From positions 1,377,887-1,441,886 of the forward strand of contig OZ246394.1 in assembly GCA_965230895.1 (NCBI GenBank): 64,000 bases of DNA, in the 5' to 3' direction. Source of the stretch: an uncultured Gammaproteobacteria bacterium (GTDB lineage Bacteria > Patescibacteriota > Microgenomatia > Levybacterales > UBA12049). A model generated the notes under the pieces. It worked only from the letters and a program-made list of their open reading frames with translations. It was not told the DNA's origin and searched no databases. This document shows, one piece after another, positions 4,412-49,200 of this stretch. Position 1 is the stretch's first letter; every line of letters begins with the position of its first letter. Position numbers and translations under genes: made by a program.

Positions 4412-4464
4412 TTCTCTTGCCTTTTATCGGGAAATGATCAATAATAACTGAGTCTTCATCAGTT

Positions 4465-5505: not shown

Positions 5506-5506
5506 G

Positions 5507-7273: not shown

Positions 7274-7275
7274 CT

Positions 7276-15582: not shown

Positions 15583-15658
15583 TGGGCCGTTAGCTCATTT
15601 GGTAGAGCACCTCATTTGCACTGAGGGGGTGGCGGGTTCAAATCCTGTACGGTCCACC
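15583..15658 (+). tRNA. tRNA-Ala (anticodon TGC), CCA encoded
   Basis: Cloverleaf folded by hand. Acceptor GGGCCGT/ACGGTCC with the G3:U70 Ala identity pair. Anticodon loop TTTGCAC. T-loop TTCAAAT. Confidence 0.85.
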
Positions 15659-15889
15659 AGTTTTGCAAGTGAAATCAAGCATTGAGGCAAACCCTCTAGT
15701 AAGAGAGGGTTTGCCTGAGTGACTTGATGATAGATACTCCTTCATCTTTAGATGAATGAGGCTCTTTAAAAAGTGAAGAGAATATCCTGAATTGTGTTTT
15801 GTCTGCACCCGCAGACGTCCATGGCGCAATCCAGGATAAAATAATCATGTCTTAAATCTTTACCTACATTACGGTAGGTAAAGTTGAAA

Positions 15890-19135
<3,246 letters not shown>

Positions 19136-19213
19136 ATTTTAATAGACATGTTTTTCTCTTCACTCTTTGAGGAGCTTCGAAAGGAGCAGCTCAGTACTTT
19201 AATAACAAAAATT

Positions 19214-19324
19214 TTCTGGTGATTGAAGCATTATGGCACCACCTCTTCCCATTCCGAACAGAGAAGTGAAACGTAATAGCGCTCACGATACTACCTTCGG
19301 TGGGAAAATAGGTCGTCGCCAGAA
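19214..19324 (+). rRNA. rrf: 5S rRNA
   Basis: CCCATTCCGAACAGAGAAGTGAAAC core. Terminal helix TTCTGGTGA/TCGCCAGAA pairs. Confidence 0.8.
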
Positions 19325-28057: not shown

Positions 28058-28258
28058 TACACCCATAGTAATGTAAGATTGGGTATATTGCGCTCTTTTT
28101 CTTATAGATCTATATTCTTGCACGTTAACAGTTAATGGAAAGTAATGTAGCACCAGTAGGTGGCATAGTGAGTATCATGCTTGGTACTTAGTATGCCATC
28201 TTAACTGGCTACACAACACACGGAGGTAATCATCACTGACAACGAAGCCAGGGCCAGC

Positions 28259-28444
28259 TTGCAGAGACTCTACTTAGAGGATCCAAAAGCGTACAGGGTT
28301 CTGGAAATGTGGGTCAGGTTCGGTTATGGACAGTTTGATCGAGAATCGACAACGAATCTGGTCAAACTTGGACTGATGAATGCAGAAGGAACGATTCCAG
28401 ACTCTGTTCGGGAAGAAATTCTTTCTGTCGGCGGCCACGGATAA
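28259..28444 (+). CDS. hypothetical small protein (61 aa), first gene of the G+C-rich module
   Basis: Track ORF. G+C-rich codon usage unlike the host. My manual read places a TTG start at 28258; see the rejected notes. Confidence 0.3.
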   Translation: MQRLYLEDPKAYRVLEMWVRFGYGQFDRESTTNLVKLGLMNAEGTIPDSVREEILSVGGHG

Positions 28445-28467
28445 CATCGAGACTACGAGGAGACAGC

Positions 28468-28749
28468 ATGACTGACAACTTTTCCGAGCGAGTGATTACG
28501 ATCACGTCGTCAGGAAGAAATGCAAAGGACTGGATCGATGCAGCGATTTCAGTGGTACAAGGTGCTTACAGACTCGAGATGCGTCGTACAGGTGACAACA
28601 CCGCAGAGGTGACATGTTCCACGATGGAGCAGGCGCATCCTCTGATGTACACGCTGATGGCTCTGGACCTCACTGAGATCAAGATCGCCAAGGCACCTCG
28701 TCGTCGTATCCGCACACGCAGAACTCCAAACGAGAACGGAGCAAAGTAA
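28468..28749 (+). CDS. hypothetical small protein (93 aa, basic C-terminus)
   Basis: Track ORF with a verified ATG. Its stop overlaps the next start (TAATG). Confidence 0.4.
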   Translation: MTDNFSERVITITSSGRNAKDWIDAAISVVQGAYRLEMRRTGDNTAEVTCSTMEQAHPLMYTLMALDLTEIKIAKAPRRRIRTRRTPNENGAK

Positions 28750-29060
28750 TGATCGGTCAACCGTTCACAATGCGAGATGGTTCAAATGTTTCGATAGGAG
28801 ACGTGTTTCCCATTCTGGAGAAGCTACGAATTCTTCGCGACAAGAACTACTCTGCATTCGAGGCTCTCGTGCTAGCAGTCCGCAACTTCGGTCCTGTTCC
28901 ACAACCGTTCAGGTCTGACCTGGATGCGTTCTGCAATGCAGAAACAGGGTGTGTCCCAAACGACATCGACGCCGTTGTGCTCTTCGGGACTCACTTCGAC
29001 CGTAATTCGGACGAACACATCGTGATCAATCTCGAGAACGGGGAGGCAAGTCAGCAATGA
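28749..29060 (+). CDS. hypothetical small protein (103 aa)
   Basis: Track ORF. Start overlaps the upstream stop. Its stop overlaps the next start (ATGA). Confidence 0.4.
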   Translation: MIGQPFTMRDGSNVSIGDVFPILEKLRILRDKNYSAFEALVLAVRNFGPVPQPFRSDLDAFCNAETGCVPNDIDAVVLFGTHFDRNSDEHIVINLENGEASQQ

Positions 29061-29311
29061 CCCAAGTTCAAGGAAAGTGTGAGATCACTGTTCGTACGTC
29101 CGGTGACGAAAGCCTGACACAGGGCCTGGTGGCTACGCTGCGAAAGCGGTTCGGTTCGTCACTCCCTGTGGAGTCGAGTAAGGCTGTCGTGACGATCATC
29201 GTCCTGACTATCAATCTCGAGTCAGTGCTGACGCTCATCTTCACCGAAGTTCAAACACTCACCAACGACGACGTGGACATCGACTTCATCGATCCCGACA
29301 TGTCTGACTGA
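29057..29311 (+). CDS. hypothetical small protein (84 aa, hydrophobic stretch)
   Basis: Track ORF coupled to the previous ORF by an ATGA overlap. Confidence 0.35.
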   Translation: MTQVQGKCEITVRTSGDESLTQGLVATLRKRFGSSLPVESSKAVVTIIVLTINLESVLTLIFTEVQTLTNDDVDIDFIDPDMSD

Positions 29312-29425
29312 GTCATGACAATCATCACGAGATCGCGAGGACCTCCCGACATCCTACGAAAAGGAGCACACCATGCAAGTCGCATGAGTAAGTGAAAGTG
29401 TACTTTCCAACAACTGAATAGTGCA

Positions 29426-29549
29426 TTAAGGCATTAGGTCACCTTCGGGTGAAAAAGTTAGTTGAGCCGGATGGACTCAGTCTCCCTGTCAATTGCGACA
29501 GACTTGAGATTGACCCCTCCGACTATACTGACCCCTAATGCCTTTTTGC
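29426..29549 (+). ncRNA. structured element: long-range stem AAGGCATTAGG/CCTAATGCCTT enclosing a UUCG-tetraloop hairpin, followed by a T-run
   Basis: The inverted repeat and the TCACC-TTCG-GGTGA hairpin were read directly. The 3' arm is followed by TTTTTG. A TGACCCCT direct repeat lies inside. Confidence 0.35.
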
Positions 29550-29585: not shown

Positions 29586-31814
29586 ATGCTCAGACTACCT
29601 TTTATTGATAACCTACCTGTTGCAAAGATTTTTTCAGATCCGGGAGATCGGATTGTCCTCGAGATAAAAACCACACGTACTGGCGAAGAAACACCTGAGG
29701 CTATGATGCAATTCCTGGCCGGGCTTACTAATATGAAAAAGCGAGCGCTTGAATTATGGTGGCGGGGGATCCCTTTTAGCCTGGAGTTAGCGGTTATTGA
29801 TCAGACTATTCATTTTTATGTCACGGTTCCAGCTGAATTTCGTACCTTTCTTGAGAGCCAATTGATCGCGCAATATCCGAAATCTCTTGTCACGCCATCA
29901 CGTGATTATCTCGCAGATATTTTAGAAGATGATGAGACATTAACCGTTGGACAAATGAAGTTAACGCATGGTCCGATTTATCCGATCAAGAGTTATAAAG
30001 AGTTTCATGAAATTGATCCTTTCTCAACATTACTCGGGCTTCTCTCAAAATCACAAATTGGTGACAAGATCGCTATACAATATCAACTGTTGCCTGTGAA
30101 TAAATCCTGGCAATCACATGGCTACAAAACAGCGAGACAGAAAACGACAGACGCTTCCGGTAAAGAAACTGCAAATCCTTGGGCAAAACTTATTGAGCAG
30201 AAGATTGCACATGATGGTTTCAAAACAGCAATTCGCTTGGCAGTAAAAGCTTCTGATAAGTCTCGAAGTAATCAGTTAATGCATCTGCTTGCACATAGTT
30301 TTGCAGGCGTTAACAATCCTTCAGGTAACAATTTGTCTTATCATAGGACGTTTCTGTGGCAGCGAAAAAGACTTATCAATAGCATGTTAAGCAGAAGTCG
30401 TTACTTCATGCCAAACCAAATCCTCAACGTCGAGGAACTTGCGACGCTCTATCATTTCCCCTCAGCTAAATTGGCAAAGATTCATAATATTTCTTGGTAT
30501 AAAAGTATTTATTCTGATCCACCGGAAGAACTTCCGATCTCAGAACGCATGACTGACGATGAAAAGAAAGAAGTTAATTTCTTCGGCAGAACCGAATACA
30601 AGAACCGTATGACAACGTTTGGCATTAAAGCAAATGACAGACGAAGGCATATGTATATCATCGGAAAGACAGGAACAGGAAAATCGACGTTGATTGCAAA
30701 TATGGCGATCAGTGATATTCGGAACAATAAAGGCGTTTGCATTGTTGATCCTCATGGGGATCTTTGTGAGAAGATTCTTGATTACATCCCTTCATATCGA
30801 ATCAATGACGTGGTCTATCTTGATCCATCGGATTTGGATTACGCCTTCATGCTGAATCCGCTTGAAGTAACGGATAGTTATCAAATGGAATTGGTGGTTT
30901 CTGGAATCGTAGGTATCTTCCACAAGATCTATGGTAATTCCTGGGGTCCGAGGCTTGAATATATTCTCCGTAATGCTTTGTTCACCTTAACACATTTACC
31001 AAATCCGACACTCCTTATGGTCCCTGAACTGCTTACCAATGATGCTTTCCGCAAAGAAGTGCTCAAGAAGGTCGATGATCCTGTATTGAAAAGTTATTGG
31101 GAAGGGGAGTTTGCAAATATGCCTGATCGACTGAAGAGTGAATCCATCTCTCCAATTTTGAATAAGGTTGGGCAGTTTATTTCTTCACGATTTATTCGTA
31201 ATATTCTGCAGAATCCGAAGTCAACGATCAATCTTGAAAAGATCATGAATGAACGGAAGATTTTGCTTTTGAATTTGTCTCAAGGAAAACTTGGGGAAGA
31301 CAATTCTGCATTGCTTGGAGCGATGATTATTACCAAAATTCAATTGGCAGCTATGAATCGTGTCTCTATCGCAGAACATGATAGACAAGATTTTTATCTC
31401 TATGTAGACGAGTTCCAGAATTTTGCTACAAGTTCTTTTATCAAGATTCTTTCGGAAGCTCGAAAGTACCGATTGAACTTAATTCTTGCTAATCAATATA
31501 TTTCTCAGATTCCTCAAGATGTTCGTGGTTCAATCTTTGGTAATGCTGGAACAATCTTCTCATTTCTTCTTGGTTCAGAAGACGCAAGTTTTATGGCACG
31601 AGAGTTTAAAGAGCGGTTCAAAGACGAAGACTTGCTTGCATTAGGCAATCATCAAGGTATTGTAAAGCTAGCAATTGATGGGATTACCCAAGAGCCATTT
31701 CTCTGCTATACATTGCCGTTGCCAAATAGCGCGACACAAAATCGTTTGAAGGTAATCAGTAACTCCCGGATGAGATATATGAAGAAGGTGGGGGGCTTAA
31801 GCCTTTTTTCTTAA
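29586..31814 (+). CDS. HerA/VirB4-like P-loop ATPase (DUF87-type) with uncharacterised N-terminal domain
   Basis: Walker A IIGKTGTGKST followed by IVDPHGDL, matching the HerA/VirB4 D-P-x-G-E/D motif. Walker B LYVDEFQNF. The first 300 aa match nothing I recognise. Confidence 0.6.
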   Translation: MLRLPFIDNLPVAKIFSDPGDRIVLEIKTTRTGEETPEAMMQFLAGLTNMKKRALELWWRGIPFSLELAVIDQTIHFYVTVPAEFRTFLESQLIAQYPKSLVTPSRDYLADILEDDETLTVGQMKLTHGPIYPIKSYKEFHEIDPFSTLLGLLSKSQIGDKIAIQYQLLPVNKSWQSHGYKTARQKTTDASGKETANPWAKLIEQKIAHDGFKTAIRLAVKASDKSRSNQLMHLLAHSFAGVNNPSGNNLSYHRTFLWQRKRLINSMLSRSRYFMPNQILNVEELATLYHFPSAKLAKIHNISWYKSIYSDPPEELPISERMTDDEKKEVNFFGRTEYKNRMTTFGIKANDRRRHMYIIGKTGTGKSTLIANMAISDIRNNKGVCIVDPHGDLCEKILDYIPSYRINDVVYLDPSDLDYAFMLNPLEVTDSYQMELVVSGIVGIFHKIYGNSWGPRLEYILRNALFTLTHLPNPTLLMVPELLTNDAFRKEVLKKVDDPVLKSYWEGEFANMPDRLKSESISPILNKVGQFISSRFIRNILQNPKSTINLEKIMNERKILLLNLSQGKLGEDNSALLGAMIITKIQLAAMNRVSIAEHDRQDFYLYVDEFQNFATSSFIKILSEARKYRLNLILANQYISQIPQDVRGSIFGNAGTIFSFLLGSEDASFMAREFKERFKDEDLLALGNHQGIVKLAIDGITQEPFLCYTLPLPNSATQNRLKVISNSRMRYMKKVGGLSLFS

Positions 31815-32504
31815 GTAGAATCCTAATGCACCAAGCGGTGCAAGCCCTATAAGTGCAAGCGCTTCAGGACCGGTTTCTGGCGTTGACTTGGACTGGGTTG
31901 GGGGATAAATAGGAAGTCCACCTTTACTTGTGGTTGGTTTGTTCTGCGCTTGAGCGGTTGCATCAGTTCTACTGACGCAAGCTTTTACATTGTCTTGGCT
32001 GACTTTTCTATTCGCTTCAACTCTCGCTTGATTGATAACACAACTTATTTGTGGAGAATTGGGTAATTTATCTGCCGCAGCAACTTTTGCTTCTACAAAG
32101 TAAACTTTGTTTGATTGTTTCTCAAGCGAGTCTATAGTAAAGCTAAACGTTCGAGTCTTTGCATCATATGTCCCTGAGCCTTTTGCATACTCAAGGTAAA
32201 CAGGGAAGATATCTCTTACAGCAATATTGCTCACGGCATTATTGCCAACGTTTGAAACTGTAAGTTTGAATCGAATAGTCTGTCCTGGTTTAAATGCAGC
32301 AGCTTCTGGTGGAAGACTATCAACGTATTCTTGATTCTCTGGATTCTGGATTTGCTTGTTTATGGTGATAGGATCATTTTGTTCACAAGTTATCCCTCCG
32401 CCATAGATTTGTTCACAATTAGGAGTTTGCGCAGCAAGAGCTGGCGTAGCGAGAACGAAAAGCGAAAGAGAAGCTGCAAAAATAGATGATAATGCTAATT
32501 TCAT
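31797..32504 (-). CDS. secreted DUF11/CARDB-like surface protein with LPXTG-type C-terminal sorting signal (TPETG)
   Basis: Signal peptide. Ig-like repeat motif IRFKLTVSNVGNNAVSNIAVRD. C-terminus STPETG followed by a hydrophobic helix and RKKA. Confidence 0.5.
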   Translation of the reverse strand: MKLALSSIFAASLSLFVLATPALAAQTPNCEQIYGGGITCEQNDPITINKQIQNPENQEYVDSLPPEAAAFKPGQTIRFKLTVSNVGNNAVSNIAVRDIFPVYLEYAKGSGTYDAKTRTFSFTIDSLEKQSNKVYFVEAKVAAADKLPNSPQISCVINQARVEANRKVSQDNVKACVSRTDATAQAQNKPTTSKGGLPIYPPTQSKSTPETGPEALALIGLAPLGALGFYLRKKA

Positions 32505-35373: not shown

Positions 35374-37719
35374 TTACTTCAGGAGGCTTCGTTCTTTAGT
35401 GTACATAATCCATAAGAGAAGATTAAAAAGAGAAATAAGGAAGAATGGTAATGTCATTGCTACGCCAAATGAGAATAAGAACATGAGCTCCAGGAGAAAC
35501 GAAACAAACAACGTAAACTCAAAAAGTTCTCCTGCAACATGTTTAAATCCGAGGATGTTTGGTATTTGCACATGATCTTTCGTGTATAACGTTACCATTG
35601 ATTCTTTCTTGGTATCAGTTGCTGAGGTTAACTCCTTTTTAATAAATCCTTCTTTTGTAACAATAAGCTTCAAATACGGCTTATCAAATACATTTCTAAT
35701 CGCAAATCTGCCTATCTTGTTTGTCATTCCATGAGCCAATATCTGGCCAGTTTTTATATCCGCAACTTCAATCCGGACCCCTGTAATCGGATTCTTCTTT
35801 TCATCAATGATAAAGCCATATATATACGCTTCATAATGTTTTCTCCCTGCTACAGCAAGCCCAAAGAAAAAGTATGGGAAGAAGTTCTTCCAAGGGATAT
35901 CGGTTCGTAATTGGAACAAAAGCATAGCCAATCCAGTAATTGAAAGCAGTGCAACTGCTCCAACGAAATAGAATAAGCGTACAGAACTCGACAGGTTTTT
36001 GAAGAGGCTCGTACTGGTGTTTAAAAACTCCTTTGACCAATCATAGAATGTATTTATGAGATAGGTGAGATCAAAAGGATTCTTCTTAAGGCGTACAGTC
36101 GGATATTCTTCACCTTGTGCGGATCCAAGGGTAAACTCTACTGATTTCTGACCATAACCCCAAGCACTCACATCTACTTTATACCGGCCAGGCAAAAGAA
36201 CAGGGGAGACTTCACCAATAGAATTGGAATAAAAGATCATATCTAATGGTTCAAATGCGTTACTTTTTGTATTAAATATTGAGAGCGCAGCTCGTGCATC
36301 AGCAAGTGGAGTATTAAGCTCAGACTCTAGGATTCTAATTGGCGGACCGCTTTTAAAATCAGATATCTTTCTACTCATTATGTTACCTTTTTGATCACTT
36401 TGATACATAAGAACGTTATAGGTTCCTATCTTTCCCGTGCGTAAATGAGCGACATAAGTAATTGAGTCTTTCGTCGCCATCTTTACTCTTCGGTCTATGC
36501 CATCTGGGCCAGAAACGACAATCTCAATAGAGGATGCTTGCTGTGGTTTTGTGAATGTATAAAACACTTGATATTCCGCTGTTGTAGGCAAGATAACAAA
36601 GTTATTGTTGGCCTCTTGATTCAGGATACGCGAGAGTAAAACTGTTTCGCCACTTTTTATAACAACAGCATCATTTTGAGCTTGAGGAACCGTCGATTTC
36701 GCTGCAGTTGTGAATGTAAATATTTCTGAACGGATGCTTTGTCCGCTACTATCAATCGCCACAACTTGGAAGTAATATCGAGTTGATGGGTTCAATTGAG
36801 ATATGGTTAATGTGTTTGATCGAGCAAACGCTGAAGAAATTGCTGTTCTATTCAAGCTTGATTCATCAGTTCCATAAAGGACAGTAACTTGAGCAGGACG
36901 GTTTGTATTGACAGTAACATCCGTAGAAGAATCAGTTATCCGATCAAATCGGACATCAAGTATGCTCACATTATTTGGTTTTTGAGCCGGAGTTGGTGTC
37001 GGTGCTGTAGTTGGTGCCGGTATTGCCGTAGGTTGTGGCCCTGGTGTTGAAGTAGGTCCAGGAGTCGGGGTTGGTGTCATTGTTGGTGTCGGAGTTAGCG
37101 ATGGTATTGGTGTGAGCGTTGGAGTTGGGGTCACGAGGCTCAAATCAAATTGGTATGTCTGAGTCTCTGTTTGGTCTGGAAAGGTTATAAAATCGTTGCT
37201 CAAGCGTGCTCTTGTCGTAAAAGAAACAGGATCAGGTTCTGTATAGTTTTCGTTTGTACGGAGCTGAAATGTCACAGTCTGGTTCGTTGTTCCGGCTGGA
37301 AGTGCTGGGATCGTCCAGGTGATCGTTCTGTTCAGTAAGTCGACAACTGGTACAACTCCGCCATATGCTGTGCTCGCTGAACCAATGACATAATCAAGAA
37401 CATGGCTTCCACCTGGTGCTTCATCATCACGAAAGTCTATCGTGATTGTTGTTTCAGTATCAGTGCCTGCTGAAGCTTGGGCTCCATAGGTAACTTCATA
37501 ATTAAGGACAGTTCTCTGTGGTACAGTTGTCTGTCCATCAGAGGCAAAGTTGAATTGAAAGTCACCTTGGCTCGGTGGAACAATAGCTGTAACAGAAAAG
37601 TCCCTTCGCTCTTGGACTTGCGCATATAATTGGGTTTGGACTGTTGGCAAAAGCAATAATGTAATGATGGCAGTCACGATAAAGATTATTTTGGATTTCA
37701 GGTTATATTTCATTCTCAT
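35374..37719 (-). CDS. large surface/membrane protein: signal peptide, PT-rich linker, FN3-like domain, two carboxypeptidase-regulatory-like domains, C-terminal TM helices
   Basis: Linker TPTPTLTPIPSLTPTPTMTPTPTPGP. FN3-like block (ISQLNPSTRYYFQVVAIDSSG). CarbopepD_reg-like PGRYKVDVSAWGYG. Hydrophobic helices near the C-terminus. Confidence 0.5.
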   Translation of the reverse strand: MRMKYNLKSKIIFIVTAIITLLLLPTVQTQLYAQVQERRDFSVTAIVPPSQGDFQFNFASDGQTTVPQRTVLNYEVTYGAQASAGTDTETTITIDFRDDEAPGGSHVLDYVIGSASTAYGGVVPVVDLLNRTITWTIPALPAGTTNQTVTFQLRTNENYTEPDPVSFTTRARLSNDFITFPDQTETQTYQFDLSLVTPTPTLTPIPSLTPTPTMTPTPTPGPTSTPGPQPTAIPAPTTAPTPTPAQKPNNVSILDVRFDRITDSSTDVTVNTNRPAQVTVLYGTDESSLNRTAISSAFARSNTLTISQLNPSTRYYFQVVAIDSSGQSIRSEIFTFTTAAKSTVPQAQNDAVVIKSGETVLLSRILNQEANNNFVILPTTAEYQVFYTFTKPQQASSIEIVVSGPDGIDRRVKMATKDSITYVAHLRTGKIGTYNVLMYQSDQKGNIMSRKISDFKSGPPIRILESELNTPLADARAALSIFNTKSNAFEPLDMIFYSNSIGEVSPVLLPGRYKVDVSAWGYGQKSVEFTLGSAQGEEYPTVRLKKNPFDLTYLINTFYDWSKEFLNTSTSLFKNLSSSVRLFYFVGAVALLSITGLAMLLFQLRTDIPWKNFFPYFFFGLAVAGRKHYEAYIYGFIIDEKKNPITGVRIEVADIKTGQILAHGMTNKIGRFAIRNVFDKPYLKLIVTKEGFIKKELTSATDTKKESMVTLYTKDHVQIPNILGFKHVAGELFEFTLFVSFLLELMFLFSFGVAMTLPFFLISLFNLLLWIMYTKERSLLK

Positions 37720-37760
37720 TCAAGCATACAAAATCGCAGCAGCCTGAGCAAGGCTAGAGA

Positions 37761-38171
37761 TTATTTAACGGTGATAATAAGCTTCTCATTCTGATTATTT
37801 CGGTCAGCAACTGCAAAAGTACCCTTCTTATTAAACTGCATCTGAACGGCTTCCATATGCCCGTAGCCGCGTGGAGTTGTTAATTCTGGAGTAGTTGCTA
37901 TCAATGACATTAATTCAGTCTCATTGGTGTTTACAATTTGGATATAGCGAGTGAATCCAATCGTCACCGCATGCTTGCTAAACTTTTTTCCATCAAAGGT
38001 AACTTTCGTTATCAATGGATCATTTTGTGTACCTCCAACTGTAGTTGGTTCTGGTATCACAATTTGTTTGACATCAGAAAATCCGTTTTGCAAAACTTCA
38101 GGAAAGAAAAATGCATGTGTTAAAAATCCCGCAGCAAAAAATAAAATGCTCAGGAATATATTTTTTTTCAT
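37761..38171 (-). CDS. small secreted protein (136 aa), hypothetical
   Basis: Signal peptide MKKNIFLSILFFAAGFLTHAF. Last gene but one of the long minus-strand operon. Confidence 0.35.
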   Translation of the reverse strand: MKKNIFLSILFFAAGFLTHAFFFPEVLQNGFSDVKQIVIPEPTTVGGTQNDPLITKVTFDGKKFSKHAVTIGFTRYIQIVNTNETELMSLIATTPELTTPRGYGHMEAVQMQFNKKGTFAVADRNNQNEKLIITVK

Positions 38172-38178
38172 ATGAGGA

Positions 38179-39123
38179 TTATCTGAACAATGCCTTTAAA
38201 GCCTTGCCGAGACGCTTTCGCATGAGGTAAAGAAGGAATAATACTACAAGTGCACCTGCAGCGATTTTAACAGGGAAGACATAGAAGGTTGTGGTAGCTG
38301 AAAGGCTTTGATTTTGGGAACCATAGTACATAAGCGCAGTCGCTTTATAGCTTCCGATAAGGAATTTGTTGCTTAATTCAGAACGGAGAACTCGTTCTGC
38401 AGATGGGAAAACGTTTGTTCCAGGAACAACAATATCTGCAACTTTACGACCGAACATATCTGTCACATTGACGAGCCCAAAAGTCTTGACGTGGACATTG
38501 CCACTATTGGCAAATGTTAAGTTAAATGGAACTGGTCCATATTCAGAAAAAGTCGGTGCTTCAATTGATTTCAATTCGAGCTTCTCATCAACTGGACCGC
38601 TTACTTTAACAAGGAACAATGATGCGATTTCTTGAGAAAGTGATGCTGAATTTGGATCAGCATTTTCTGGTTTCACGCCAAAGACAAATGATCCAAATCT
38701 GCCTCCAGCAGCATCAGCTGGTGCTTTGATTATTGCTGTAACTTCCTGTTCAGCACCTGGTTGCAGTGTAAATGTCGAAGGTGAAACATTGGTCCAAGAA
38801 GCAACACTATATGGACTATCTGCTGTTAATTCAATTTGTCCTTCATCACCTTTGGCTGTAAAGTCTTCTATTCGAACTGTAACTGGTACGGAAGTATTGC
38901 TTTTATTTCTGAGGGTTGCTTTAACGGTTGTTGTCTTTCCCGGGTCGATAGATACTTCTTGTGATGGTGGAGAAACCTCAAGCCCTTGTCCTGGCACTTG
39001 TGCGGTTACATAATCGTGAATTGAATAGGCGAGCGTTGTCCCTCCTACAACTAACAAAACACTGAGCAATGCCCAGGATGCTTTATTCATTCCGTGGAGC
39101 TTGTTCAATAGTGTATGTTTCAT
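38179..39123 (-). CDS. cassette A1: secreted beta-rich protein with C-terminal TM anchor and basic tail (DUF916/DUF3324 CscA-like architecture)
   Basis: Signal peptide. C-terminal IAAGALVVLFLLYLM-RKRLGKALKALFR. Start ATG overlaps the stop of the upstream gene (TAATG). Confidence 0.5.
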   Translation of the reverse strand: MKHTLLNKLHGMNKASWALLSVLLVVGGTTLAYSIHDYVTAQVPGQGLEVSPPSQEVSIDPGKTTTVKATLRNKSNTSVPVTVRIEDFTAKGDEGQIELTADSPYSVASWTNVSPSTFTLQPGAEQEVTAIIKAPADAAGGRFGSFVFGVKPENADPNSASLSQEIASLFLVKVSGPVDEKLELKSIEAPTFSEYGPVPFNLTFANSGNVHVKTFGLVNVTDMFGRKVADIVVPGTNVFPSAERVLRSELSNKFLIGSYKATALMYYGSQNQSLSATTTFYVFPVKIAAGALVVLFLLYLMRKRLGKALKALFR

Positions 39124-40265
39124 TAGTATGTTGGTGTAGCAACGAGAATGACTGTTCCTGTATATGCTCCAGCAGGCTGAATACCATTAACTTCTGCTTC
39201 CCAACCTAATCGGACTGTTTCATTTGTAACTCCAGCAGCACTACAGATAACTTCTGCACCTGCTGTTGATGATCCTGCCCATTTCGCTCCACCACTTGTG
39301 AATCTTGCAGCAGTTCCAGTACAAAGCGTTGCATCTTCAGTTGAATATCCAAAGTATCCTGTGTTTGTATTTGCTGTTGTACCTGCTGGTGAACTCCATG
39401 TTGTTGGTGAAGCATTTGTGCCAGTCCAAGTATCAATATTATTTGTCGACCCTGAAATCAATGGAGGATTCCCCGATTGAGCATTTGCTGAATGAGATGC
39501 TGTCACTGTATAACCGTTCGCTGCGTTCGTACTGATTGTTACATCATGTGCTGCGATCTTTGGAGCACCATTTGCTAATGTTCCGAAAGGAATAGTTGTT
39601 GCAGTTGAAGTTACGTTAACGTTTCCTGATCCACCGTTGAAGTTTCCACCAGTTGAAACGCCAGCGACACTAAAGGAAAAGCTTGGATCAACCGTAGCTG
39701 AAACTGCAATTGAAGTTGTATCTAATACTGCAAATGCTGCAGTTGTTGGGCCGTCGATAACGGTTGAACCAGTGTCTGAATAGGTAGTTGTTCTTGCATA
39801 ATATGTTGTATTAGCACCTGATGGGTTCGTGACTCCTGTGAAGTTAACAAACATAGCCTGAGTTGATTGGGTTGATGGAGTAGTGACAACTACTCGAAAT
39901 GCATTTGCAGATGGAGCGGAGTTTGTTCTTCCGGTACCAGCGATGTTGTCAGTTTGAATTGTTGGGGTTCCTGAATTAAATCCAGCAGGAGCATTACATG
40001 TTCCAGAAGCGGTGGTACAAATCTGGATATCAATTTGTTTGATCGCAGTAGTAGCTGTCGTCGTCCAGTTAAACCCATAGGTAACATTGGATGCAGATGC
40101 TTGCGAATTGTTAATAGTTACTTTGTAGCTCGTTAATGTGCCGGCATTTGCTTTCGCTGCATACATATTTACTACAGGGGGGAGAAGCAGTAATAAGATT
40201 AAGAGCAAAGTCGATGTAATCTTTATCTGTGTTTTTGTAAGATTTTTCAATTTTTGAGCAGACAT
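39123..40265 (-). CDS. cassette B1: secreted Thr/Ser/Gly/Asn-rich protein, conserved C-terminal W-containing domain (WxL-like, inferred)
   Basis: Signal peptide. No anchor. C-terminal block PTTWSS...GYFGYSTEDATL...RFTSGGAKWAG...VILVATPTY shared with B2 and B3. Confidence 0.5.
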   Translation of the reverse strand: MSAQKLKNLTKTQIKITSTLLLILLLLLPPVVNMYAAKANAGTLTSYKVTINNSQASASNVTYGFNWTTTATTAIKQIDIQICTTASGTCNAPAGFNSGTPTIQTDNIAGTGRTNSAPSANAFRVVVTTPSTQSTQAMFVNFTGVTNPSGANTTYYARTTTYSDTGSTVIDGPTTAAFAVLDTTSIAVSATVDPSFSFSVAGVSTGGNFNGGSGNVNVTSTATTIPFGTLANGAPKIAAHDVTISTNAANGYTVTASHSANAQSGNPPLISGSTNNIDTWTGTNASPTTWSSPAGTTANTNTGYFGYSTEDATLCTGTAARFTSGGAKWAGSSTAGAEVICSAAGVTNETVRLGWEAEVNGIQPAGAYTGTVILVATPTY

Positions 40266-40319
40266 AGGGCAAGATAAAACTATCAGTACATTAAGAATAA
40301 ATTAAAGAGCTGTGCGATG

Positions 40320-41285
40320 TCAAGGACGAATTAAGGCTTTTATAGCCTCAGAAAAGCGTTTTCGTTTAAGAATTATAAACAGTAAGAATATTAAGACTAA
40401 GACAAGCCCGAATGCATGAGCAAACGGAAATACAATAAAATATCTTTCATCTGTAATAGTTTGACCGTTGCCTGTCGAGACGGTTAGCGCTGCCCTATAA
40501 ATGTTTGGAGAAAGACCTTGAATTTTAGCTTCTTCAGTCCATCTTCGGACACCACCTGGGAATATGATTTTCTCTTCAAGTTCGATCTTTTGTTTGCTGG
40601 TTGCTGGAATAAGTGGTTCAACTGTCAGATCTGGTTTTGCTGAGAAGAAATTCAAGGCGATATTTTTAACGCGTAATAATAAAGGAACTGTACCTTCTTG
40701 ATTCCAGTAAGGTAAAGAAAAATCAAGAATCTCAGCTTTCTTTGCATTTGGATCTGGAACGCCGATGTTTGCGAGCATTAAAATTCCGACTTTGGCATTA
40801 ACTCTTGTGGCGTCAGTGGGAGCGTTCACTAAAACTGGTTCAAAAAAGAGTACACCATAATATCCACCAACAGGAATTGATTTTGGTGTCTGTATTGCCA
40901 TCTGTAATGTTTTCTTTTCCTTGGGACCGAGGATGAATTCGTTCTCGCTTAATGAAACCCATGAAAGAAGAGGATTCGTTTTTGATTCTTCAAAGATATA
41001 TCCACCTTCTTCGCCACTTGTTATGAAATCATTGAAAGATGCACGCAATGGCATAGGGGATGATGATAAGTTTTCGATTGTCACTTCCTGTTGTATTGTT
41101 TTGTCTGGGGATAAGGAAAGATTCATTATGACAGGTGACACTCGAAGTGTCTGCTCTTGTGCATATGCATTTTGAGCAGATAACAACGATACCACCATTA
41201 ATAATGGGGTCATTAAAGCTAGGTTTATACACTTTGATATATTAAATCTCATATTTAGCCATGAACTATTAATAACTAGGTACAA
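40320..41285 (-). CDS. cassette A2: paralogue of A1 (signal peptide, C-terminal TM anchor, basic tail)
   Basis: C-terminus LVLVLIFLLFIIL-KRKRFSEAIKALIRP. Overlaps B2 by 17 nt. Confidence 0.5.
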   Translation of the reverse strand: MYLVINSSWLNMRFNISKCINLALMTPLLMVVSLLSAQNAYAQEQTLRVSPVIMNLSLSPDKTIQQEVTIENLSSSPMPLRASFNDFITSGEEGGYIFEESKTNPLLSWVSLSENEFILGPKEKKTLQMAIQTPKSIPVGGYYGVLFFEPVLVNAPTDATRVNAKVGILMLANIGVPDPNAKKAEILDFSLPYWNQEGTVPLLLRVKNIALNFFSAKPDLTVEPLIPATSKQKIELEEKIIFPGGVRRWTEEAKIQGLSPNIYRAALTVSTGNGQTITDERYFIVFPFAHAFGLVLVLIFLLFIILKRKRFSEAIKALIRP

Positions 41286-42366
41286 CTATATATAATACGG
41301 TACTACTATACTTAGCTGCCTTTTGAGATGCAGCGGTTTGGACTCTATATGTGATCGTAAATTGCTCGTTAACGATAGCTGAAGTCACAGGTCCTGCATG
41401 ATCAGCTACTGGGTCTCCTGGAGTAGAGGTTGTGAATCCTGCATACTTAGGTCCACCGATGGTGAATCGGTCCGCCGTTCCTCCAGTTAAGCTACTATCA
41501 TTTGTAGTATAGCCGAATCCGTTGCCTGACCATGTCGTTGGTGCTGAATTTGGACTTGAATAATCAGCAATCGTGCCAAATCCTGTTGCCGTAAGTGGTC
41601 CAGTTGATCGTGCGTTAACCACATAACCATTATATGCATTGGTTGAAGTCGTAAGTGTCGTTGTTTTACTACCATCAGTATAGGAATTTCCGGAGTTCAG
41701 ATTGCTGAAAGTTACGTTATTTGAATCAACACTAAAGGTGAGGGAGGGCGTAGTCGTTGCCGCTTGCGCTGTTGGTCCGTATTCACTCTCAGTATAATCT
41801 CCCTGTCTAGCCTTTACTTTAATAGTATATGTTGTTCCTTGTAATAGACCCGTTACATATTCTCCGCTGGCTCCGCCCCAGTCCGTATAAGTTTGGAAAT
41901 CAGCACTTGTTAATGTCGTTCCAATAGTATTGTCACTTTTGATATAGCGGACGTCACTGACGAAATTATCAGAACTTATGGAAATAGCATATTCAGCATC
42001 GGCGGGATTATTGCTTGTATTGAGTATAAATTGTAAGCGGTCATAATTACTCGATGGATTTGTAAAAGTCGGTACTCCAGGGACGTGAGCTTTCATAATA
42101 TAAGTCAGTCCTGACCCCATTTGGAAATTTGTACTCGAAGGTCTCCCAAATTCTATTTGTCCAGCTACGCCATAGAGTCCAAAGTTACTTGAGGTACTAT
42201 TCGTTGTTCCACCGGAACCAAACGAATATTCCTGAATTCTGTAGTTGGTACTGGCTGGGTATGCAGCAAACGCAATAAGGGTGAGAGGTGAGAAATGAGA
42301 TGTTAGAAATATGATCAAAACCAGAATGGGCAGTTTATGTTTCATACTAATAGTATACCTACTCAC
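41269..42366 (-). CDS. cassette B2: paralogue of B1
   Basis: C-terminal block PTTWSGNGFGYTTNDSSLTGGTADRFTIGGPKYAG...STVLYIVVPSY aligns with B1. Confidence 0.5.
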   Translation of the reverse strand: MSRYTISMKHKLPILVLIIFLTSHFSPLTLIAFAAYPASTNYRIQEYSFGSGGTTNSTSSNFGLYGVAGQIEFGRPSSTNFQMGSGLTYIMKAHVPGVPTFTNPSSNYDRLQFILNTSNNPADAEYAISISSDNFVSDVRYIKSDNTIGTTLTSADFQTYTDWGGASGEYVTGLLQGTTYTIKVKARQGDYTESEYGPTAQAATTTPSLTFSVDSNNVTFSNLNSGNSYTDGSKTTTLTTSTNAYNGYVVNARSTGPLTATGFGTIADYSSPNSAPTTWSGNGFGYTTNDSSLTGGTADRFTIGGPKYAGFTTSTPGDPVADHAGPVTSAIVNEQFTITYRVQTAASQKAAKYSSTVLYIVVPSY

Positions 42367-43279: not shown

Positions 43280-46200
43280 ATGAAGTATATCTTGCCCGTC
43301 CTGCGCCAAAAATCTTATTTGAGGCTAACTAGCCTTATTCTTTGCGTGGTAGTAGCTTCGGGAAGTATATTCATGGCTATCAAGCCTGCTTTTGCTGCTA
43401 CAGGAATTAACCAGACCATCAACTTCCAAGGTAAGTTAGTCGGTTCAACAGGATTGAATGTAGCTGATAGCACGTACAGCGTCGTTTTCACGCTCTATGA
43501 TGCGAGCTCAGGAGGCACGAACCTCTGGGACGAAACGCAAAGCGTATCGACCACTGATGGTATCTTCCAGGTTCAGTTAGGTTCAGTCGATACAACTTTG
43601 GGCAATGTCGATTTCAACACAGATAATCTCTATCTCGGCATCAAAGTCGGAGCTGATGCAGAAATGACTCCTCGTATTCGTTTTGCGGCAGTTCCATATG
43701 CCTTCAATGCTCAAAAAGTAGCAGGTTTGACAGTCACAAATACGACTGGAACACTTACTATACCAAATGGCAAGACAATCGAATTTGCCGACTCATTCAC
43801 TACTACAGGGGGAAATGCTCTAACTCTAGCCACAACTGGCACTACAAGTATCACTTTGCCAACTACAGGCACCCTACTGACAAACACTGCCACATCAAAC
43901 CAAACGATTACATCGACTCAGACTTCAGGCACGATTTTGGGATTAACTGACTCAACAAACATTACTGGCGCAACTACAGGACTAGCCATAAGCATGACTG
44001 GTACGGGTGCGTTTGATCAGACTGGCTTATCTTTTAACTTGTCTGGAGCAACTGGATCCAACACAAATGATATCGTCGGATCCGGTGGGACATGGAAAGT
44101 TAGCAGATCTGGTGACCTTACTGTTAATTCATGTACAGGTTGTACTGGCGGCCTAGCTAATTATTGGAGACTGGCAAATGGTGCATTCTCACCTGTCAAT
44201 GATACGACTGATCTTTTGATCGGAAGTGCAGCTTCAGCGTCTGCGAAGTTTGGCTTCCTCAACGTCGCAAATGGTGGAACTCCAACCGCATCTATCTCCG
44301 CCAACTCCGGAAATAATGCGACATACCTCATGGGTACCGGTATTCTCGCAACAACAAACAAACAAACGCTTACCTTGGGTCAAGCATCGACCGGAAATAT
44401 TGTAATTGGTACGGATGCTACTGCGCGCACTGTTACGATTGGCAACAATACTGGAGCGAGTGCCTTAGCGTTTACTTCAGGGACGGCAGCTCAAACATTT
44501 ACTTCATCAGCGACTACAGGAACAGCATTCTCTTTTGTCGGTAACTCAGTCAACACAGGAACTGGTCTTGGATTGACTGCAAATGGTTTGACGAATGGTA
44601 ATGCACTTTCAGTCACGTCAACTGCGACAGCGCTTGGATCAGGAAGGATGCTTAATATATCAAAGACAGGAGCTTCTGGATCAACTGCCTTCACAGGCGA
44701 TATCGCAAACATTGCTTACTCACAAACATTCAACAATGGAGTTGGCCTTAATCATACAGGCAATGTTATGGACCTCTCCCGAAATATTACATTGAACGTA
44801 GCTCAGACTCAAACAATTTCAGGTGCATTGATGTCACTCTCTGATTCAGCGACACAATCACTCGGTACGCTTAACAGCACAGCAGATGTCCTTGCGATCA
44901 CTCAGAACTATGCAGCAAACACTGGAGCTGCATTGAATATAACATCTGCTACAAATAATGGCTTAATCTTCCGAGCGAATGATGATGGAACTCTCACTGA
45001 TTCGACCCCATTTGTTATAGATGGAGGTGGTGAAGTCGGTATCGGGACAACGGCACCAAACGCTACATTGGATGCTCGAGGAATCCTCGGGACAACTCCA
45101 GTCGCTTCATTCTCTGGTTCTACAGCGATGGCATCAATGGTCGTTGACCAATCAGGCATTGGAGATCTCTTTACCGCGAGTAAATCCGGAGCTACCAAGT
45201 TTGCCGTTTTAAACAATGGAAACCTCTCTATGAATAACTACAACAACTGTACGATGTTGACGACAATCGGAACTGTCTTAACTTGTGGCTCTTCTCCAGC
45301 TGCGTCTACACAATATGTTCGATTAAATAATGGTGCCTTCTCATTTGTGAACGACACGGCTGATTTTCTTATCGGAAACACATCATCAGCCTCAGCGAAG
45401 TTTGCTTTCCTCAATGTGAACTCTGGAACACCAACTGCATCGATTTCTGCGAATTCTGGCAACAATGCTGCATACTTTTCAGGAGATGGTGTCCTGGGGA
45501 CAACTAATGCACAGACATTGCAATTAGGATCAGCGTCAACCGGAGATATTCAATTAAAGCCTGGAAATAATGCAAATAGTTTATATCTTGCTTCAAGTGG
45601 ACGAGTAAGTATCGGAAATCCTGCATTAACAACAGGAGTTGTAAATCTCGTAAATAATGGTCTTCCAACGGGTGATCCAACTTTGGTCATCCAACAAGGT
45701 ACAGGACAAACCGGAGACTTGATGCAATTCAGAAATTCCTTGGGAAATCTCATCGGCAAAGTTGATTCTTCAGGAAATATCGCAGCGCCAAACTTTGTCG
45801 ACCTTGCGGGAACAGGTCCATATCTATCCTTCGGAGGCGCAGCAACAATTTTGGATACTCGTACAGGGAGCAATACTGGATTAGTTCTCAAAGCCGGTGG
45901 AACAACACAAACAGGTAACTTGCTTGAAGTACAAAATAATGGCGGTGGAGTGCTTTCAAAGTTTAATGGCATCGGCCAGTTGGGTCTCGGTGCTGGAACA
46001 AATAGTTTGCTTGCGACACTTGATGCTCGAGCCCTCTCTGGTACGCAGCCAGTGGCATCTATCTCCGGACAAACAGCACAATCCTCATTGGTTGTTGATC
46101 AATCAGGAACTGGTGATATCTTCGCAGCTTCAAAGTCTGGCGCGACAAAGTTTGTAATCAATAATGCTGGTAATGTACGAATTGCGAACTTTACTTCAAC

Positions 46201-49200
46201 TGATGGTCTTATCACAGCTGATGTTAATGGAGTCTTAACACAAAATGCAAATGCATCACTCAATAGTTTTGGTGACCTCAATACTCGATATATTACGACG
46301 AACGCTACAGTTGAAGCGAGAACCTATCAAGCGAATGAAAACGCGTTAATTGTTAATCAAGGTTCTACTTCACCAACAGCTGCGGCAGCGCTCATTAAAG
46401 GTGGTACAACTCCAGGGGCTACTGCAGATCTTTTGCAACTCCAAAACAGTGGAAGCACTACGCTTGCACGATTCAATAGAAATGGCCAATTAGTAATCCA
46501 AGCAAATGGTGGCACAACACCAAATGCTTCAATCTCTGGAACTACAAGTTTCGCGTCTCAAATCGTTGATCAGGCTGGTGTAGGTGACATTTTCACTGCC
46601 TCAAAATCTGGTGCAACCAAATTCACAATCTTGAACAATGGCAACCTCTCAATGAACAATTACAATAACTGCGGAATGTTAACAACAACAGGAACTGTTC
46701 TGACATGTAGTTCTGCACCGGCAGGTGGAACTAACTATTGGAACCTCGCAAGTGGAACTTTGGCTCCAGTAAATACGACGCTTGATCTGTTGGTCGGAGG
46801 GACAGCCAGTAATTCAGCAAAGTTCGCAGTACTTAATATGAATTCAGGAACTCCAACAGCAAGTATTTCAGCAAATTCAGGTGGGAATGCAACATACCTA
46901 ACTGGAGACGGCACACTGTCCACAACACTTAATAAGACATTGAGTTTGAATCCAAATGGAGGAAACGTAGGAATCGGGACAACAAATGCTACACAAAAGC
47001 TTACAGTGAATGGAAGAATCAGAACAGATGGAGGTATGGTCTTCAGTCAAGGATTAGCTCCAACAGCTAATTTCATTTATGTCGGAGGAGATACTGCTGG
47101 CGCTACAGATCAACAGTTTGGGTTTGTCCTTGCAGGAGTTGGTTCAACCACAACTGCACAAGGAGGATACTTTGTAGGCCGCGGAAATAACTTTAGTGAC
47201 ATCTTGAATCAGAGAGGAAATATGTATTTTGCTGCAGGTAATCCAAGCTCACCAGGCGCACTTGAAGGATCGCTCAACTTCTTAACAGGAAATGAAGTGA
47301 ATAGAATGATGATTACAAACGCTGGTACCATCGGTGTTGGGACGACATCTCCTTTGGCAACACTTGATGTTCGAGGACAATCTGGAACACTTCCAGTTGC
47401 ATCTGTTTCAGGTCTTACCGCAATGGCGGCTTTGGTTGTAAATAATAATGGCATAGGAGATCTCTTTACAGCGTCAAAGAGTGGATCTACAAAAGTTGCC
47501 ATCACAAACACAGGAACACTCGCAGTTGGTTCATTTACACGAGCATCAGCTGCGACAACTCCAAAGGATCAACTCCATCTTTGGGGCAATGGTTCGTTGG
47601 GGAGTAATGCAATTATCCATTTCGGTGACGTCGCTAATGATTCCAATGCATATATTAAAGAAGCAACAACAGGTGATAGTGATCAACTGGAACTTGGTGG
47701 GCGACAAGGTTTGATCTTTGCAACTGGTACAAATACCTCTTATGGATTTGAACGAATGAGAATCGATGCAAGTGGAAACGTGGCAATTAATAATACTGGA
47801 ACTGCACAAGCTACATTTGATGTTCGAGGCATATCAGGTACAAATCCAGTTGCATCAGTATCAGGTACAACTTCACGGGCAGCAATGGTGGTAAACAATG
47901 ATGGTGTGGGAGATCTCTTCACTGCAAGTAAATCTGGATTACCAAGATTTGTCATCGACAATAGCGGTAATGTAAAGATCGGTACATCAGTATCAGGTGC
48001 AAGACTTCAAGTAACAGGAAACAGTGGTTATGGTGTACTTCTCGGCGCTGGTGCTGGTGGAGGAAATACAATTGACGGAACTTTAAATGGTGTAGCAAAT
48101 GAAGCTTTATGGCTTAACTCAATCTCAGAAAAAGATGTTTATATCGTTCCAAATAATGGAAGTGTCGGTGTTGGTACGAACGATTCAAGTGAGGGAAAGC
48201 TCACCGTAGCCGGGACATATACGAACGCAGCTTCTGATTATTCCGGTCTATTCGTCAATCCAACCTTTAGCCAAACGAGTAATAGCAGTAATGCATATTA
48301 TGGAACTCGAACCCAAGCTCTCTATGGAAGTGCATTTAACCTTGCAGAATTGGATGGAGCAGTCAATAACAGTGCCTTCTATGGAGCGGGGACACTCACG
48401 ATCTTGCGAGGATCATACAATCAGGCAAGTATCTCTCAGGGGACCACCGGTACTGCAAATTATGCTCAAGGTGTGGTTGGTGAAGTTGTCCATCGAGGCG
48501 TGGGAACAATTGTAGAAGCAACAGGTCTCGTTGGTACCGTCAGTCTCCAATCAAGTGGCACAGGTAACGATGGAGAAATCACAGGAGCTGCAGGTGTGAT
48601 TGGTTATGTCCAAAATAACCTCAGTGCAAACACAGGAACAATTGGTACCGGAACAGCGATCTATGCAGGCGCACCAACCGCATCAGCAAATGCTCCAATC
48701 ACAAACACAAGAGGTGTCTATATCGAGAACCAAGGATCTGCTGGCGTAACCAATGCAACAGGTCTCTACGTAGAAGGACAAAGCGGAGCAAGCGGCACAA
48801 ACTATGCCGCAATCTTTGCTAGTGGAAGAGTAGGTATCGGTACAACTGGACCTGCTGCGGTTTTGGATGTAAATGGAGATATTAAGGCGAGTGCAACAAT
48901 AACAAATACAGGATCTCTTGCTGGGCTTTCTATGGCAGTGGGTAATGATTCAGATGCAGATACACTCAGTGCTCTTTCAATTGATGTTACATCCGCATCC
49001 ACTGGAGATTCTGATAATGTCTACGGTCTTAATGTTGGCAATTTGACGGGAGCTGGTTCAACAGTAAACGAAAGTGGAATTAGAGTTGGAACTGGCTGGG
49101 ACAATGATATTGAATTCTCAGATAGTGCTCCAAATATCAAACTTGGTGCCACAGATAATACTTCAGAACTTACATTTACTGATGCTTCTTCAAATGTTCT

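Follow-up and report, generated by a model that had tools for sequence, protein, structure and literature searches.

Coupling-protein-like ATPases are known to be widespread in Patescibacteria (the Candidate Phyla Radiation, CPR). A survey by Quinonero-Coronel et al. 2025 reported 5,713 homologues of VirD4-type type IV coupling proteins (T4CPs) in 2,918 of 3,035 Patescibacteria genomes, about two per genome, with 148 of the 5,713 located near virB4 (PMC12102498). These orphan T4CPs are chromosomal, near-universal, rarely found beside virB4, unaccompanied by a relaxase and functionally uncharacterised (PMC12102498). Southlakia's type IV secretion system (T4SS) is essential, and its cluster contains no recognisable coupling protein or relaxase (Wang et al. 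2023; PMC10633639). Here we describe an ATPase gene that we liken to these orphan T4CPs, located in a 64,000-nucleotide stretch of contig OZ246394.1 (assembly GCA_965230895.1, positions 1,377,887 to 1,441,886), hereafter the window. Its product is a member of a known, functionally uncharacterised Patescibacteria family. It is probably the Microgenomates form, likely of Levybacteria type, of a chromosomal, vertically inherited ATPase found across the CPR, and we favour its being a coupling-type motor with a T4SS as the most likely partner.

The protein consists of a DUF8128 domain fused to a T4CP-like ATPase. DUF8128 is unmentioned in the literature that we searched, and the survey does not describe this domain, its likeness to the VirB4 N-terminal domain, or the soluble, anchored and split variants of the family (PMC12102498). 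The VirB4-like fold predicted for DUF8128, the series of soluble, anchored and split forms, and the relatives on plasmids and in phages are modest new points.

Architecture of the DUF8128 ATPase

The gene and its parts are arranged in the window as follows:

29586–31814, + strand: ATPase gene, 742 amino acids (aa), ATG start; DUF8128 followed by a T4CP-like (DUF87/TrwB-type) ATPase; from the open reading frame (ORF) and its translation
29643–30485, + strand: DUF8128 domain, residues ~20–300; alpha+beta fold predicted to resemble the VirB4/TrwK N-terminal domain (AlphaFold2, Foldseek)
30486–30572, + strand: inter-domain linker, residues ~301–329, ...SDPPEELPISE...; lower AlphaFold2 pLDDT; the point at which the gene is split elsewhere in the CPR
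30663–30689, + strand: Walker A (P-loop) GKTGTGKST, residues 360–368; invariant in 30 homologues, aligns to the TrwB P-loop
30741–30764, + strand: IVDPHGDL strand and motif, residues 386–393; DPHGDL invariant, aligns to TrwB IVDPNGDM
30876–31253, + strand: all-helical insertion, residues ~431–556, lying between Walker A and Walker B where T4CPs have the all-alpha domain (AlphaFold2)
31401–31424, + strand: Walker B YVDEFQNF, residues 606–613; FYLYVDEFQNFAT invariant in the 30 homologues
31461–31496, + strand: RKYRLNLILANQ motif, residues 626–637; putative counterpart of the T4CP 'RKxG...Q' segment

The ORF and its GKTGTGKST, IVDPHGDL and YVDEFQNF motifs are present as quoted in the initial annotation of this stretch, and the gene is not a chance ORF, since thousands of full-length homologues are found at E = 0. 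The assignment of the C-terminal two-thirds to the HerA/FtsK/VirB4/VirD4 translocase superfamily, made in the same annotation, is supported: Pfam DUF87 matches residues 344–566 with 38.1 bits (cut-off 23.2). TrwB_AAD_bind matches residues 346–399 with 34.4 bits (cut-off 20.5), and TraG-D_C scores slightly under its Pfam cut-off.

Within this superfamily, the ATPase half is by sequence closest to coupling proteins of the VirD4/TrwB type. When a 30-sequence profile was compared with the PDB, TrwB ranked first among solved structures (E 3e-4), ahead of DotL and HerA in that order. Only the P-loop and IVDP(H/N)GD belong to the significant TrwB stretch, while the stretch with Walker B and RKxxL...Q is not significant alone. 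In the latter, Walker B aligns weakly with TrwB WLFIDELASL (domain score 0.2 bits, i-Evalue 1.4e+03, not significant alone), and the RKYRLNLILANQ motif, in which R626, K627, Y628, N636 and Q637 are invariant across the 30 homologues, is set opposite TrwB RKAGLRVVAGLQ, again not significantly on its own. AlphaFold2 pLDDT falls to 30–45 across the RKYRLNLILANQ motif, making the model unreliable there. The top NCBIfam ranks are occupied by TraD, CedD and VirD4-like (CD1115) models, with alignment limited to the P-loop region. The matches of family members to TrwB_AAD_bind and T4SS-DNA_transf extend over most of the profile, in the case of TrwB_AAD_bind over positions ~8–310. The insertion at residues 431–556 is predicted to form eight helices (AlphaFold2 pLDDT 80–92), and its likeness to the T4CP all-alpha domain is one of position.

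TrwB, VirD4, TraD, DotL and Cag-beta have Walker A, IVDP(H/N)GD, Walker B and an RK...Q element in common with the window ATPase, as well as a helical insertion (predicted for the window ATPase) that separates Walker A from Walker B. Canonical T4CPs differ in having an N-terminal transmembrane (TM) domain, whereas the window ATPase has none and instead carries an extra domain of 300 aa with a predicted likeness to the VirB4 N-terminal domain. A hydrophobicity scan found no TM segment ahead of DUF8128, and the protein is predicted to be soluble. It also differs from canonical T4CPs in having no linked relaxase or T4SS and in scoring far under the curated family cut-offs.

In structural comparisons, the full-length model is collinear with full-length VirB4 chains over 750–870 columns (Foldseek), and its C-terminal half matches the T4CPs DotL (6sz9) and Cag-beta (8dol), as well as DndH-C and HerA. 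Like the window ATPase, VirB4/TrwK of R388 (PDB 7o42, 7o41, 8rtb, 8rtd) combines an N-terminal alpha+beta domain with a C-terminal RecA-like ATPase, but the two proteins are only about 7–10% identical, with no profile-level signal, and the window ATPase domain is nearer to T4CPs by sequence. Among the Pfam models of VirB4 proteins, AAA_10 reached 16.6 bits against a cut-off of 27.5, and CagE_TrbE_VirB and TraC_F_IV gave no match. No VirB3, VirB6 or VirB8 gene adjoins the window ATPase. HerA proteins (HerA-NurA, HerA-Sir2/Nezha and other defence HerAs) belong to the same superfamily, as seen in the DUF87 score above cut-off and in weak Foldseek and PDB matches. The similarity to them is lower than to T4CPs or VirB4, and the window ATPase has no detected HAS-barrel N-domain and no NurA, Sir2 or DUF4297 partner.

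The N-terminal third, first described as resembling nothing known, turned out to be a named Pfam family. An identical database protein (P0001) carries the precomputed Pfam annotation PF26449 + PF10412 + PF01935, where PF26449 is DUF8128. Our own Pfam scan was blank at the N-terminus because the scanned copy lacked PF26449, and a comparison of 22 N-domains with this copy at E <= 10 gave nothing consistent. A search with residues 1–330 against 1.84 billion cluster representatives returned 1,411 matches at E <= 1e-3, including 469 at E <= 1e-10. All ten sampled DUF8128 representatives were fused to the same ATPase, with an occasional C-terminal S1 or NUDIX domain.

AlphaFold2 modelled residues 20–300 with a pLDDT of about 90, and the domain modelled alone reached a pTM of 0.82. 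The predicted structure of the isolated N-domain resembles the VirB4 N-terminal domain: its top 13 Foldseek matches in the PDB were all R388 TrwK/VirB4 (E 1.7e-6 to 1e-4, probability 1.0), with a TMq of 0.44–0.52 over about 370 columns. The remaining matches (TMq <= about 0.33, probability <= 0.9) were ferredoxin-like folds, AcrB subdomains and FAD-dependent oxidases; TrwK is the only same-fold PDB match of the domain (TMq about 0.5). At the sequence level, a hidden Markov model of the N-domain found no match among all PDB sequences at E <= 10. An hhalign comparison with an alignment of the TcpF-type VirB4 N-domain gave a probability of 0.2%, both alignments being shallow (Neff about 2.3); a search made to deepen the VirB4 N-domain alignment yielded 12 sequences.

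Distribution, variant forms and distant relatives

More than 4,330 proteins were retrieved as homologues, and the first 120 of them are full-length and 61–86% identical to the query. The nearest named homologues belong to Levybacteria and other Microgenomates, which assigns the window to a Patescibacteria (CPR) chromosome, and close homologues are listed at NCBI as 'type IV secretion system DNA-binding domain-containing protein' or 'DUF87 domain-containing protein'. A species scan with a peptide pattern, using one genome per species, matched at least 600 genomes, of which the best 80 loci were inspected. All 80 look like CPR, and the named ones represent about 13 CPR lineages: Levy-, Shapiro-, Gottesman-, Roizman-, Ames-, Woese-, Collier-, Dojka-, Berkel-, Sacchari-, Moran-, Buchanan- and Gracilibacteria. 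Roughly along this list, identity to the window ATPase declines.

The divergence of the ATPase looks housekeeping-like and vertical, tracking that of Rho and RadA of the same loci in sequence identity to the window proteins:

Loci L005–L009: ATPase 60–65%; Rho 68–78%; RadA not detected; DUF11 protein 36–38%
Loci L034, L039 and L054: ATPase 43–46%; Rho 56–61%; RadA 42–43%; DUF11 protein not detected

The five closest loci, L005–L009, keep the gene order ATPase, DUF11 protein, Rho, LysM-M23 peptidase; L034, L039 and L054 have Rho, LysM-M23 and RadA around the ATPase in another arrangement. The initial annotation had read the gene as part of a defence- or DNA-translocation-related island and had proposed synteny in relatives as a check. 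What the relatives show is an ATPase conserved clade-wide across the CPR and, in the nearest ones, syntenic with Rho and LysM-M23, which contradicts the island claim. Clustering of 745 neighbouring ORFs from the 80 loci revealed no phylum-wide conserved partner.

As regards database labels, L005, L006 and L009 share the Levybacteria-type gene order, and the other two of the five closest loci are named Levybacteria. These three, together with many other records of metagenome-assembled genomes (MAGs) titled 'uncultured Gammaproteobacteria' or 'uncultured Pseudomonadales', carry the CPR-type ATPase, and the titles look like placeholders or errors.

The family occurs in soluble, membrane-anchored and split forms. 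All 66 loci of Microgenomates type begin directly at DUF8128 without a hydrophobic segment. In other CPR classes, the protein has an N-terminal extension of 40–60 aa, in which the hydrophobicity scan flags a TM helix in 14 loci. In eleven loci, a TM-anchored paralogue with the same DUF8128 and ATPase layout lies in tandem directly upstream of the orthologue; an example from Berkelbacteria (L064, 2778–5294) is 34% identical to the window protein. A gene resembling sigma-70 region 4 or a helix-turn-helix protein was also seen about 1.3 kb upstream in 13 loci.

In eight loci (L069, L072, L073, L075–L077, L079 and L084), the gene is split exactly at the linker by real stop codons (TAA, TAG or TGA). 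The upstream gene encodes 418–474 aa, comprising a hydrophobic N-terminal extension and DUF8128, and ends in ...PPxNLPI; the downstream gene encodes the ATPase and has its own ATG before ...ITYFAKTNFRN..FGIK (in L073, for example, 4241–5626 and 5630–7471). This fission of DUF8128 and ATPase parallels the TrsD/VirB4 and VirB3/VirB4 arrangements. By Rosetta-stone logic, the TM-anchored and naturally split forms indicate an autonomous N-domain that partners the motor close to the membrane.

Outside the CPR, a tblastn search against plasmids gave 683 records, 17 of which cover at least 80% of the query at 24–30% identity. The homologues on Bacillus subtilis and Embleya plasmids, in haloarchaea and on Sulfolobus pING1 show full-length homology that includes the N-domain, with the same motifs and 24–30% identity over 84–93% of the query. 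On a 24.7-kb plasmid of B. subtilis MH-1, the homologue WP_121549396.1 has 886 aa, with an acidic tail and, when the sequence was read by eye, no hydrophobic stretch; it aligns over 682 aa including the N-domain (24% identity, E 2e-40). It is the first gene of an operon that continues with Replic_Relax, TcpC- and TcpE-like genes and a separate 848-aa AAA_10 VirB4. On the Embleya plasmid (WP_331738717.1), the order is TrbL_4 (VirB6-like), PrgI (VirB3), a VirB4-like gene, the homologue, Replic_Relax and NlpC/P60. Since the homologue adjoins a relaxase-like gene and VirB4 is encoded separately, the DUF8128 family occupies the coupling-protein slot in these monoderm conjugation clusters. The plasmid proteins, putative coupling proteins of DUF87 type, differ from the window ATPase in being plasmid-borne, in lying in Tcp/Prg-type T4SS clusters with their own VirB4 and in having long acidic C-terminal tails. 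The T4CP of pLS20 (p48) was considered as a protein of the same subtype and ruled out, as it has two TM helices.

Full-length relatives are also encoded by large Bacillus phages, such as phage G (Gp156, Foldseek E 3e-31), SPO1 (gp27.4) and 0305phi8-36 (ORF201). By structure, these share the architecture of the window ATPase (Foldseek E 3e-31 to 5e-21), with about 21% identity over 88–93% of the query. They differ in being genes of lytic phages, functionally uncharacterised and much more distant than the plasmid relatives. The phage records are H26–H45; SPO1 gp27.4 corresponds to FJ230960.1, 92981–95137, and one phage homologue is annotated as VirD4-component-like.

The DUF11 neighbour and the surrounding window

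Immediately downstream of the ATPase gene, the opposite strand encodes a putative secreted surface protein:

31797–32504, − strand: DUF11 protein (newer Pfam name CLIPPER), 235 aa; signal-peptide-like N-terminus; DUF11 at residues 69–164, E 1e-12
31800–31883, − strand: sorting signal, residues 208–235; TPETG(PE), a hydrophobic stretch and RKKA; tail STPETGPEALALIGLAPLGALGFYLRKKA

Translation and Pfam bear out the initial annotation of this gene as a convergent DUF11 neighbour with a sortase-type TPETG-hydrophobic-RKKA tail; the 3' ends of the two genes share 18 nt. The tail had been called unusual outside Gram-positive-like envelopes. It is not unusual here: it fits the monoderm envelope of CPR bacteria, and DUF11 orthologues keep the PxTGPE signal: eight homologues retain PxTGPE, a TM segment and an R/K-rich tail. 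The DUF11 protein is the only real gene product in the window with a sorting-signal tail and is plausibly a sortase substrate. No sortase was found among the ORFs scanned in the 64-kb window; a complete Microgenomates genome is reported to encode one (PMC7143001).

The DUF11 protein adjoins the ATPase in eight of the 80 loci, in two arrangements, and is absent from the other 72. In L005–L009, orthologues lie convergently downstream of the ATPase, at the 36–38% identity given above, and in three further loci homologues of 27–28% identity lie co-directionally and immediately upstream, at a distance of 4–160 bp (L036, 9–620; L041, 1168–1833; L049, 4124–4822). Because of this limited adjacency, we treat a functional link between the two proteins as unproven; their proximity may reflect chance or weak linkage.

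Upstream of the ATPase, the window encodes an S1-domain protein, RadA, a PIN-TRAM protein and a family 2 glycosyltransferase (GT2), and downstream it encodes Rho and the LysM-M23 peptidase. DNA ligase, a RecF-like protein, thioredoxin reductase, an amylase and several large surface proteins lie further out. No VirB4, VirB6, relaxase, ATPase paralogue or recognisable defence gene is present in the 64-kb window. When the ATPase and nine neighbours were checked for the suggested defence function with PADLOC, the ATPase drew weak, generic matches, chiefly in the P-loop (to mad8 with E 2e-15 and 55 bits, and to HerA models), the neighbours drew none, and no partner genes were found. The composition of the ATPase gene is that of the host, and no integrase, att-like repeats or tRNA adjoin it.

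The reported flanking module of foreign composition is real and lies upstream of the ATPase (28250–29450, GC 0.48–0.55 versus about 0.38–0.40 on either side). It contains four small, tightly packed ORFs whose starts and stops overlap:

28259–28444, + strand: first ORF of the GC-rich module
28468–28749, + strand: second ORF
28749–29060, + strand: third ORF
29057–29311, + strand: fourth ORF

The module has no Pfam, NCBIfam, PADLOC, Rfam, phage or plasmid match, and the 103-aa product of the one ORF searched is matched by a single near-identical fragment in 5.8 billion proteins. None of the 80 related loci contains the module, which is therefore uninformative about the ATPase; in L005, 430 bp separate the GT2 gene from the ATPase. 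The module is bracketed by an imperfect inverted repeat of 16 nt (28129–28144 and 29401–29416), at a frequency expected by chance. The module is a species-specific ORFan insertion unrelated to the ATPase.

Several other features of the window were recorded. A tRNA-Ala gene and the 23S and 5S rRNA genes lie at 15584–19324, and an Rfam gathering scan found no 16S rRNA anywhere in the window. The 23S match extends over 3,251 nt, against a model of 2,925 positions, which suggests at least one insertion. The lack of a linked 16S gene and insertions in 23S are common in CPR bacteria. A run of probable surface proteins occupies 35374–42366 (− strand) and 43280–50863 (+ strand) and includes proteins of 314 and 321 aa with weak matches to the WxLIP peptidoglycan-binding domain and one of 781 aa carrying CarboxypepD_reg and fn3-like domains; beside it are an HTH_17 regulator and a 2,527-aa ORF without any Pfam match. 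At 55826–60127 (− strand), a 1,433-aa ORF has only two Pfam matches, both to N-terminal phage-integrase SAM-like domains (residues 5–92 and 127–206); no catalytic integrase domain was found in it, and its other roughly 1,200 aa have no Pfam match.

Proposed role and its alternatives

As a coupling-type motor, the protein would comprise two modules: DUF8128, with its predicted VirB4-type fold, and a nucleotide-binding domain of the FtsK/HerA superfamily that appears to belong to the VirD4/TrwB branch and carries the helical insert. By analogy with its relatives, the ATPase would oligomerise as a ring and use ATP to drive a polymer, most likely DNA and possibly protein, in the direction of a membrane channel. 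As a module for docking and oligomerisation, the N-domain would link the motor to a membrane partner. This putative docking module is itself membrane-anchored in other CPR classes, or else encoded there by a separate gene with a membrane anchor, whereas the window ATPase, being predicted to be soluble, would have to be recruited to the membrane. The most likely partner would be the monoderm-type T4SS encoded on Patescibacteria chromosomes, in whose gene cluster a coupling protein is missing.

Several observations weigh against this proposal. No T4SS, relaxase or membrane partner was found in the 64-kb window or within 6 kb of the ATPase in the 80 loci. NCBIfam T4CP models score 34–37 bits on the ATPase, against cut-offs of 250–647 (for example, 37 versus 366), and the AlphaFold2 model is poor over the P-loop and residues 624–706. 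The likeness of the N-domain to VirB4 comes from one Foldseek comparison of a predicted model, with negative sequence and profile tests and shallow alignments. The DUF8128 family is probably among the 't4cp' homologues of the published survey, a correspondence drawn from T4CP Pfam domains and NCBI names rather than from accessions. In that survey, VirB4 was found in 2,417 genomes, compared with 2,918 for T4CP homologues, and the T4CP homologue of S. epibionticum is distant from virB4 and not essential, although the T4SS is (PMC12102498). An obligatory T4SS role is doubtful because T4CP homologues occur in more genomes than VirB4 and because the S. epibionticum homologue is dispensable. Finally, the homologues in lytic SPO1-like phages indicate that the DUF8128 and ATPase architecture can work without a T4SS.

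Some of these points would also fit an exapted descendant of a coupling protein that serves as a T4SS-independent DNA pump, either alone or together with another envelope machine, for example in ComEC/type IV pilus DNA uptake or in chromosome handling at division. We regard this as a serious rival, though not the likeliest reading. T4CP homologues are present in 96% of Patescibacteria genomes and VirB4 in 80%, the former are rarely near virB4, and the survey authors, noting the dispensable S. epibionticum homologue, state that exaptation 'cannot be ruled out' (PMC12102498). The housekeeping-like divergence, the presence of RadA, Rho and a division-type LysM-M23 peptidase nearby in several lineages, and the stand-alone architecture in phages point the same way. 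However, the 80 loci hold no conserved partner of any kind, the proximity to RadA and Rho is limited to related Microgenomates loci and may be residual synteny, and MAG incompleteness could account for the smaller number of VirB4-positive genomes. Moreover, the only relatives with an informative context sit in conjugative T4SS clusters. The structural matches raise another reading, in which the protein would be a second, divergent paralogue of VirB4 that drives assembly or pilus biogenesis: in Foldseek, the full-length model and the N-domain alike have VirB4 chains as their top matches, the anchored forms elsewhere in the CPR (TM segment, VirB4-like N-terminal domain, ATPase) have the layout of a VirB3-VirB4 fusion, and the split genes recall TrsD/VirB4 and VirB3/VirB4. 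We consider this improbable, given that the ATPase matches the T4CP models TrwB_AAD_bind, TraG-D_C, T4SS-DNA_transf, TraD and VirD4-like, as well as TrwB and DotL in the PDB, while the VirB4 models fail; its helical insertion is in the T4CP position, and the plasmid clusters contain a separate true VirB4, with the homologue beside the relaxase-like gene.

The reading of the initial annotation, an anti-phage defence motor or a recently acquired mobile island, now seems highly improbable. The weak PADLOC matches to mad8 and HerA and the GC-rich ORFan module directly upstream could be cited for it. Against it stand the absence of MADS, HerA-Sir2, HerA-DUF4297, Dnd or other-system partner genes in the PADLOC check, the host-like composition, CPR-wide conservation and vertical-looking divergence of the ATPase, and the absence of the module from every inspected relative, which marks it as an independent insertion, with no integrase, att-like repeats or tRNA adjoining the ATPase. 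Clade-wide conservation, divergence like that of Rho and RadA, housekeeping neighbours and the lack of defence partners together place the locus in the core genome. The practical message for the window is that this is ordinary core genome and not a defence island.

Much of bacterial diversity belongs to the Patescibacteria, epibionts that need macromolecules from their hosts; their T4SS is essential in the only species for which this was tested. Because it is so strongly conserved across the phylum, an orphan coupling-protein-like ATPase is an obvious candidate for a T4SS component or for a parallel route. The VirB4-like N-domain, the separate membrane-anchored N-domain genes and the plasmid relatives in the T4CP slot offer handles for testing this. 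Beyond the coupling-type motor favoured here, we put forward, as a speculative and rather doubtful proposal, that DUF8128 ATPases form a distinct and ancient third branch of T4SS motors, combining a VirB4-type N-terminal docking domain with a VirD4-type nucleotide-binding domain and all-alpha module, a structure intermediate between VirB4 and VirD4. If the proposal is true, the chromosomal Patescibacteria proteins would be the missing ATPase that energises, or feeds substrate to, the essential CPR T4SS that lacks a coupling protein; alternatively, they would pump DNA in or out independently of the T4SS, as a central part of the epibiotic, nucleotide-scavenging way of life of these bacteria.

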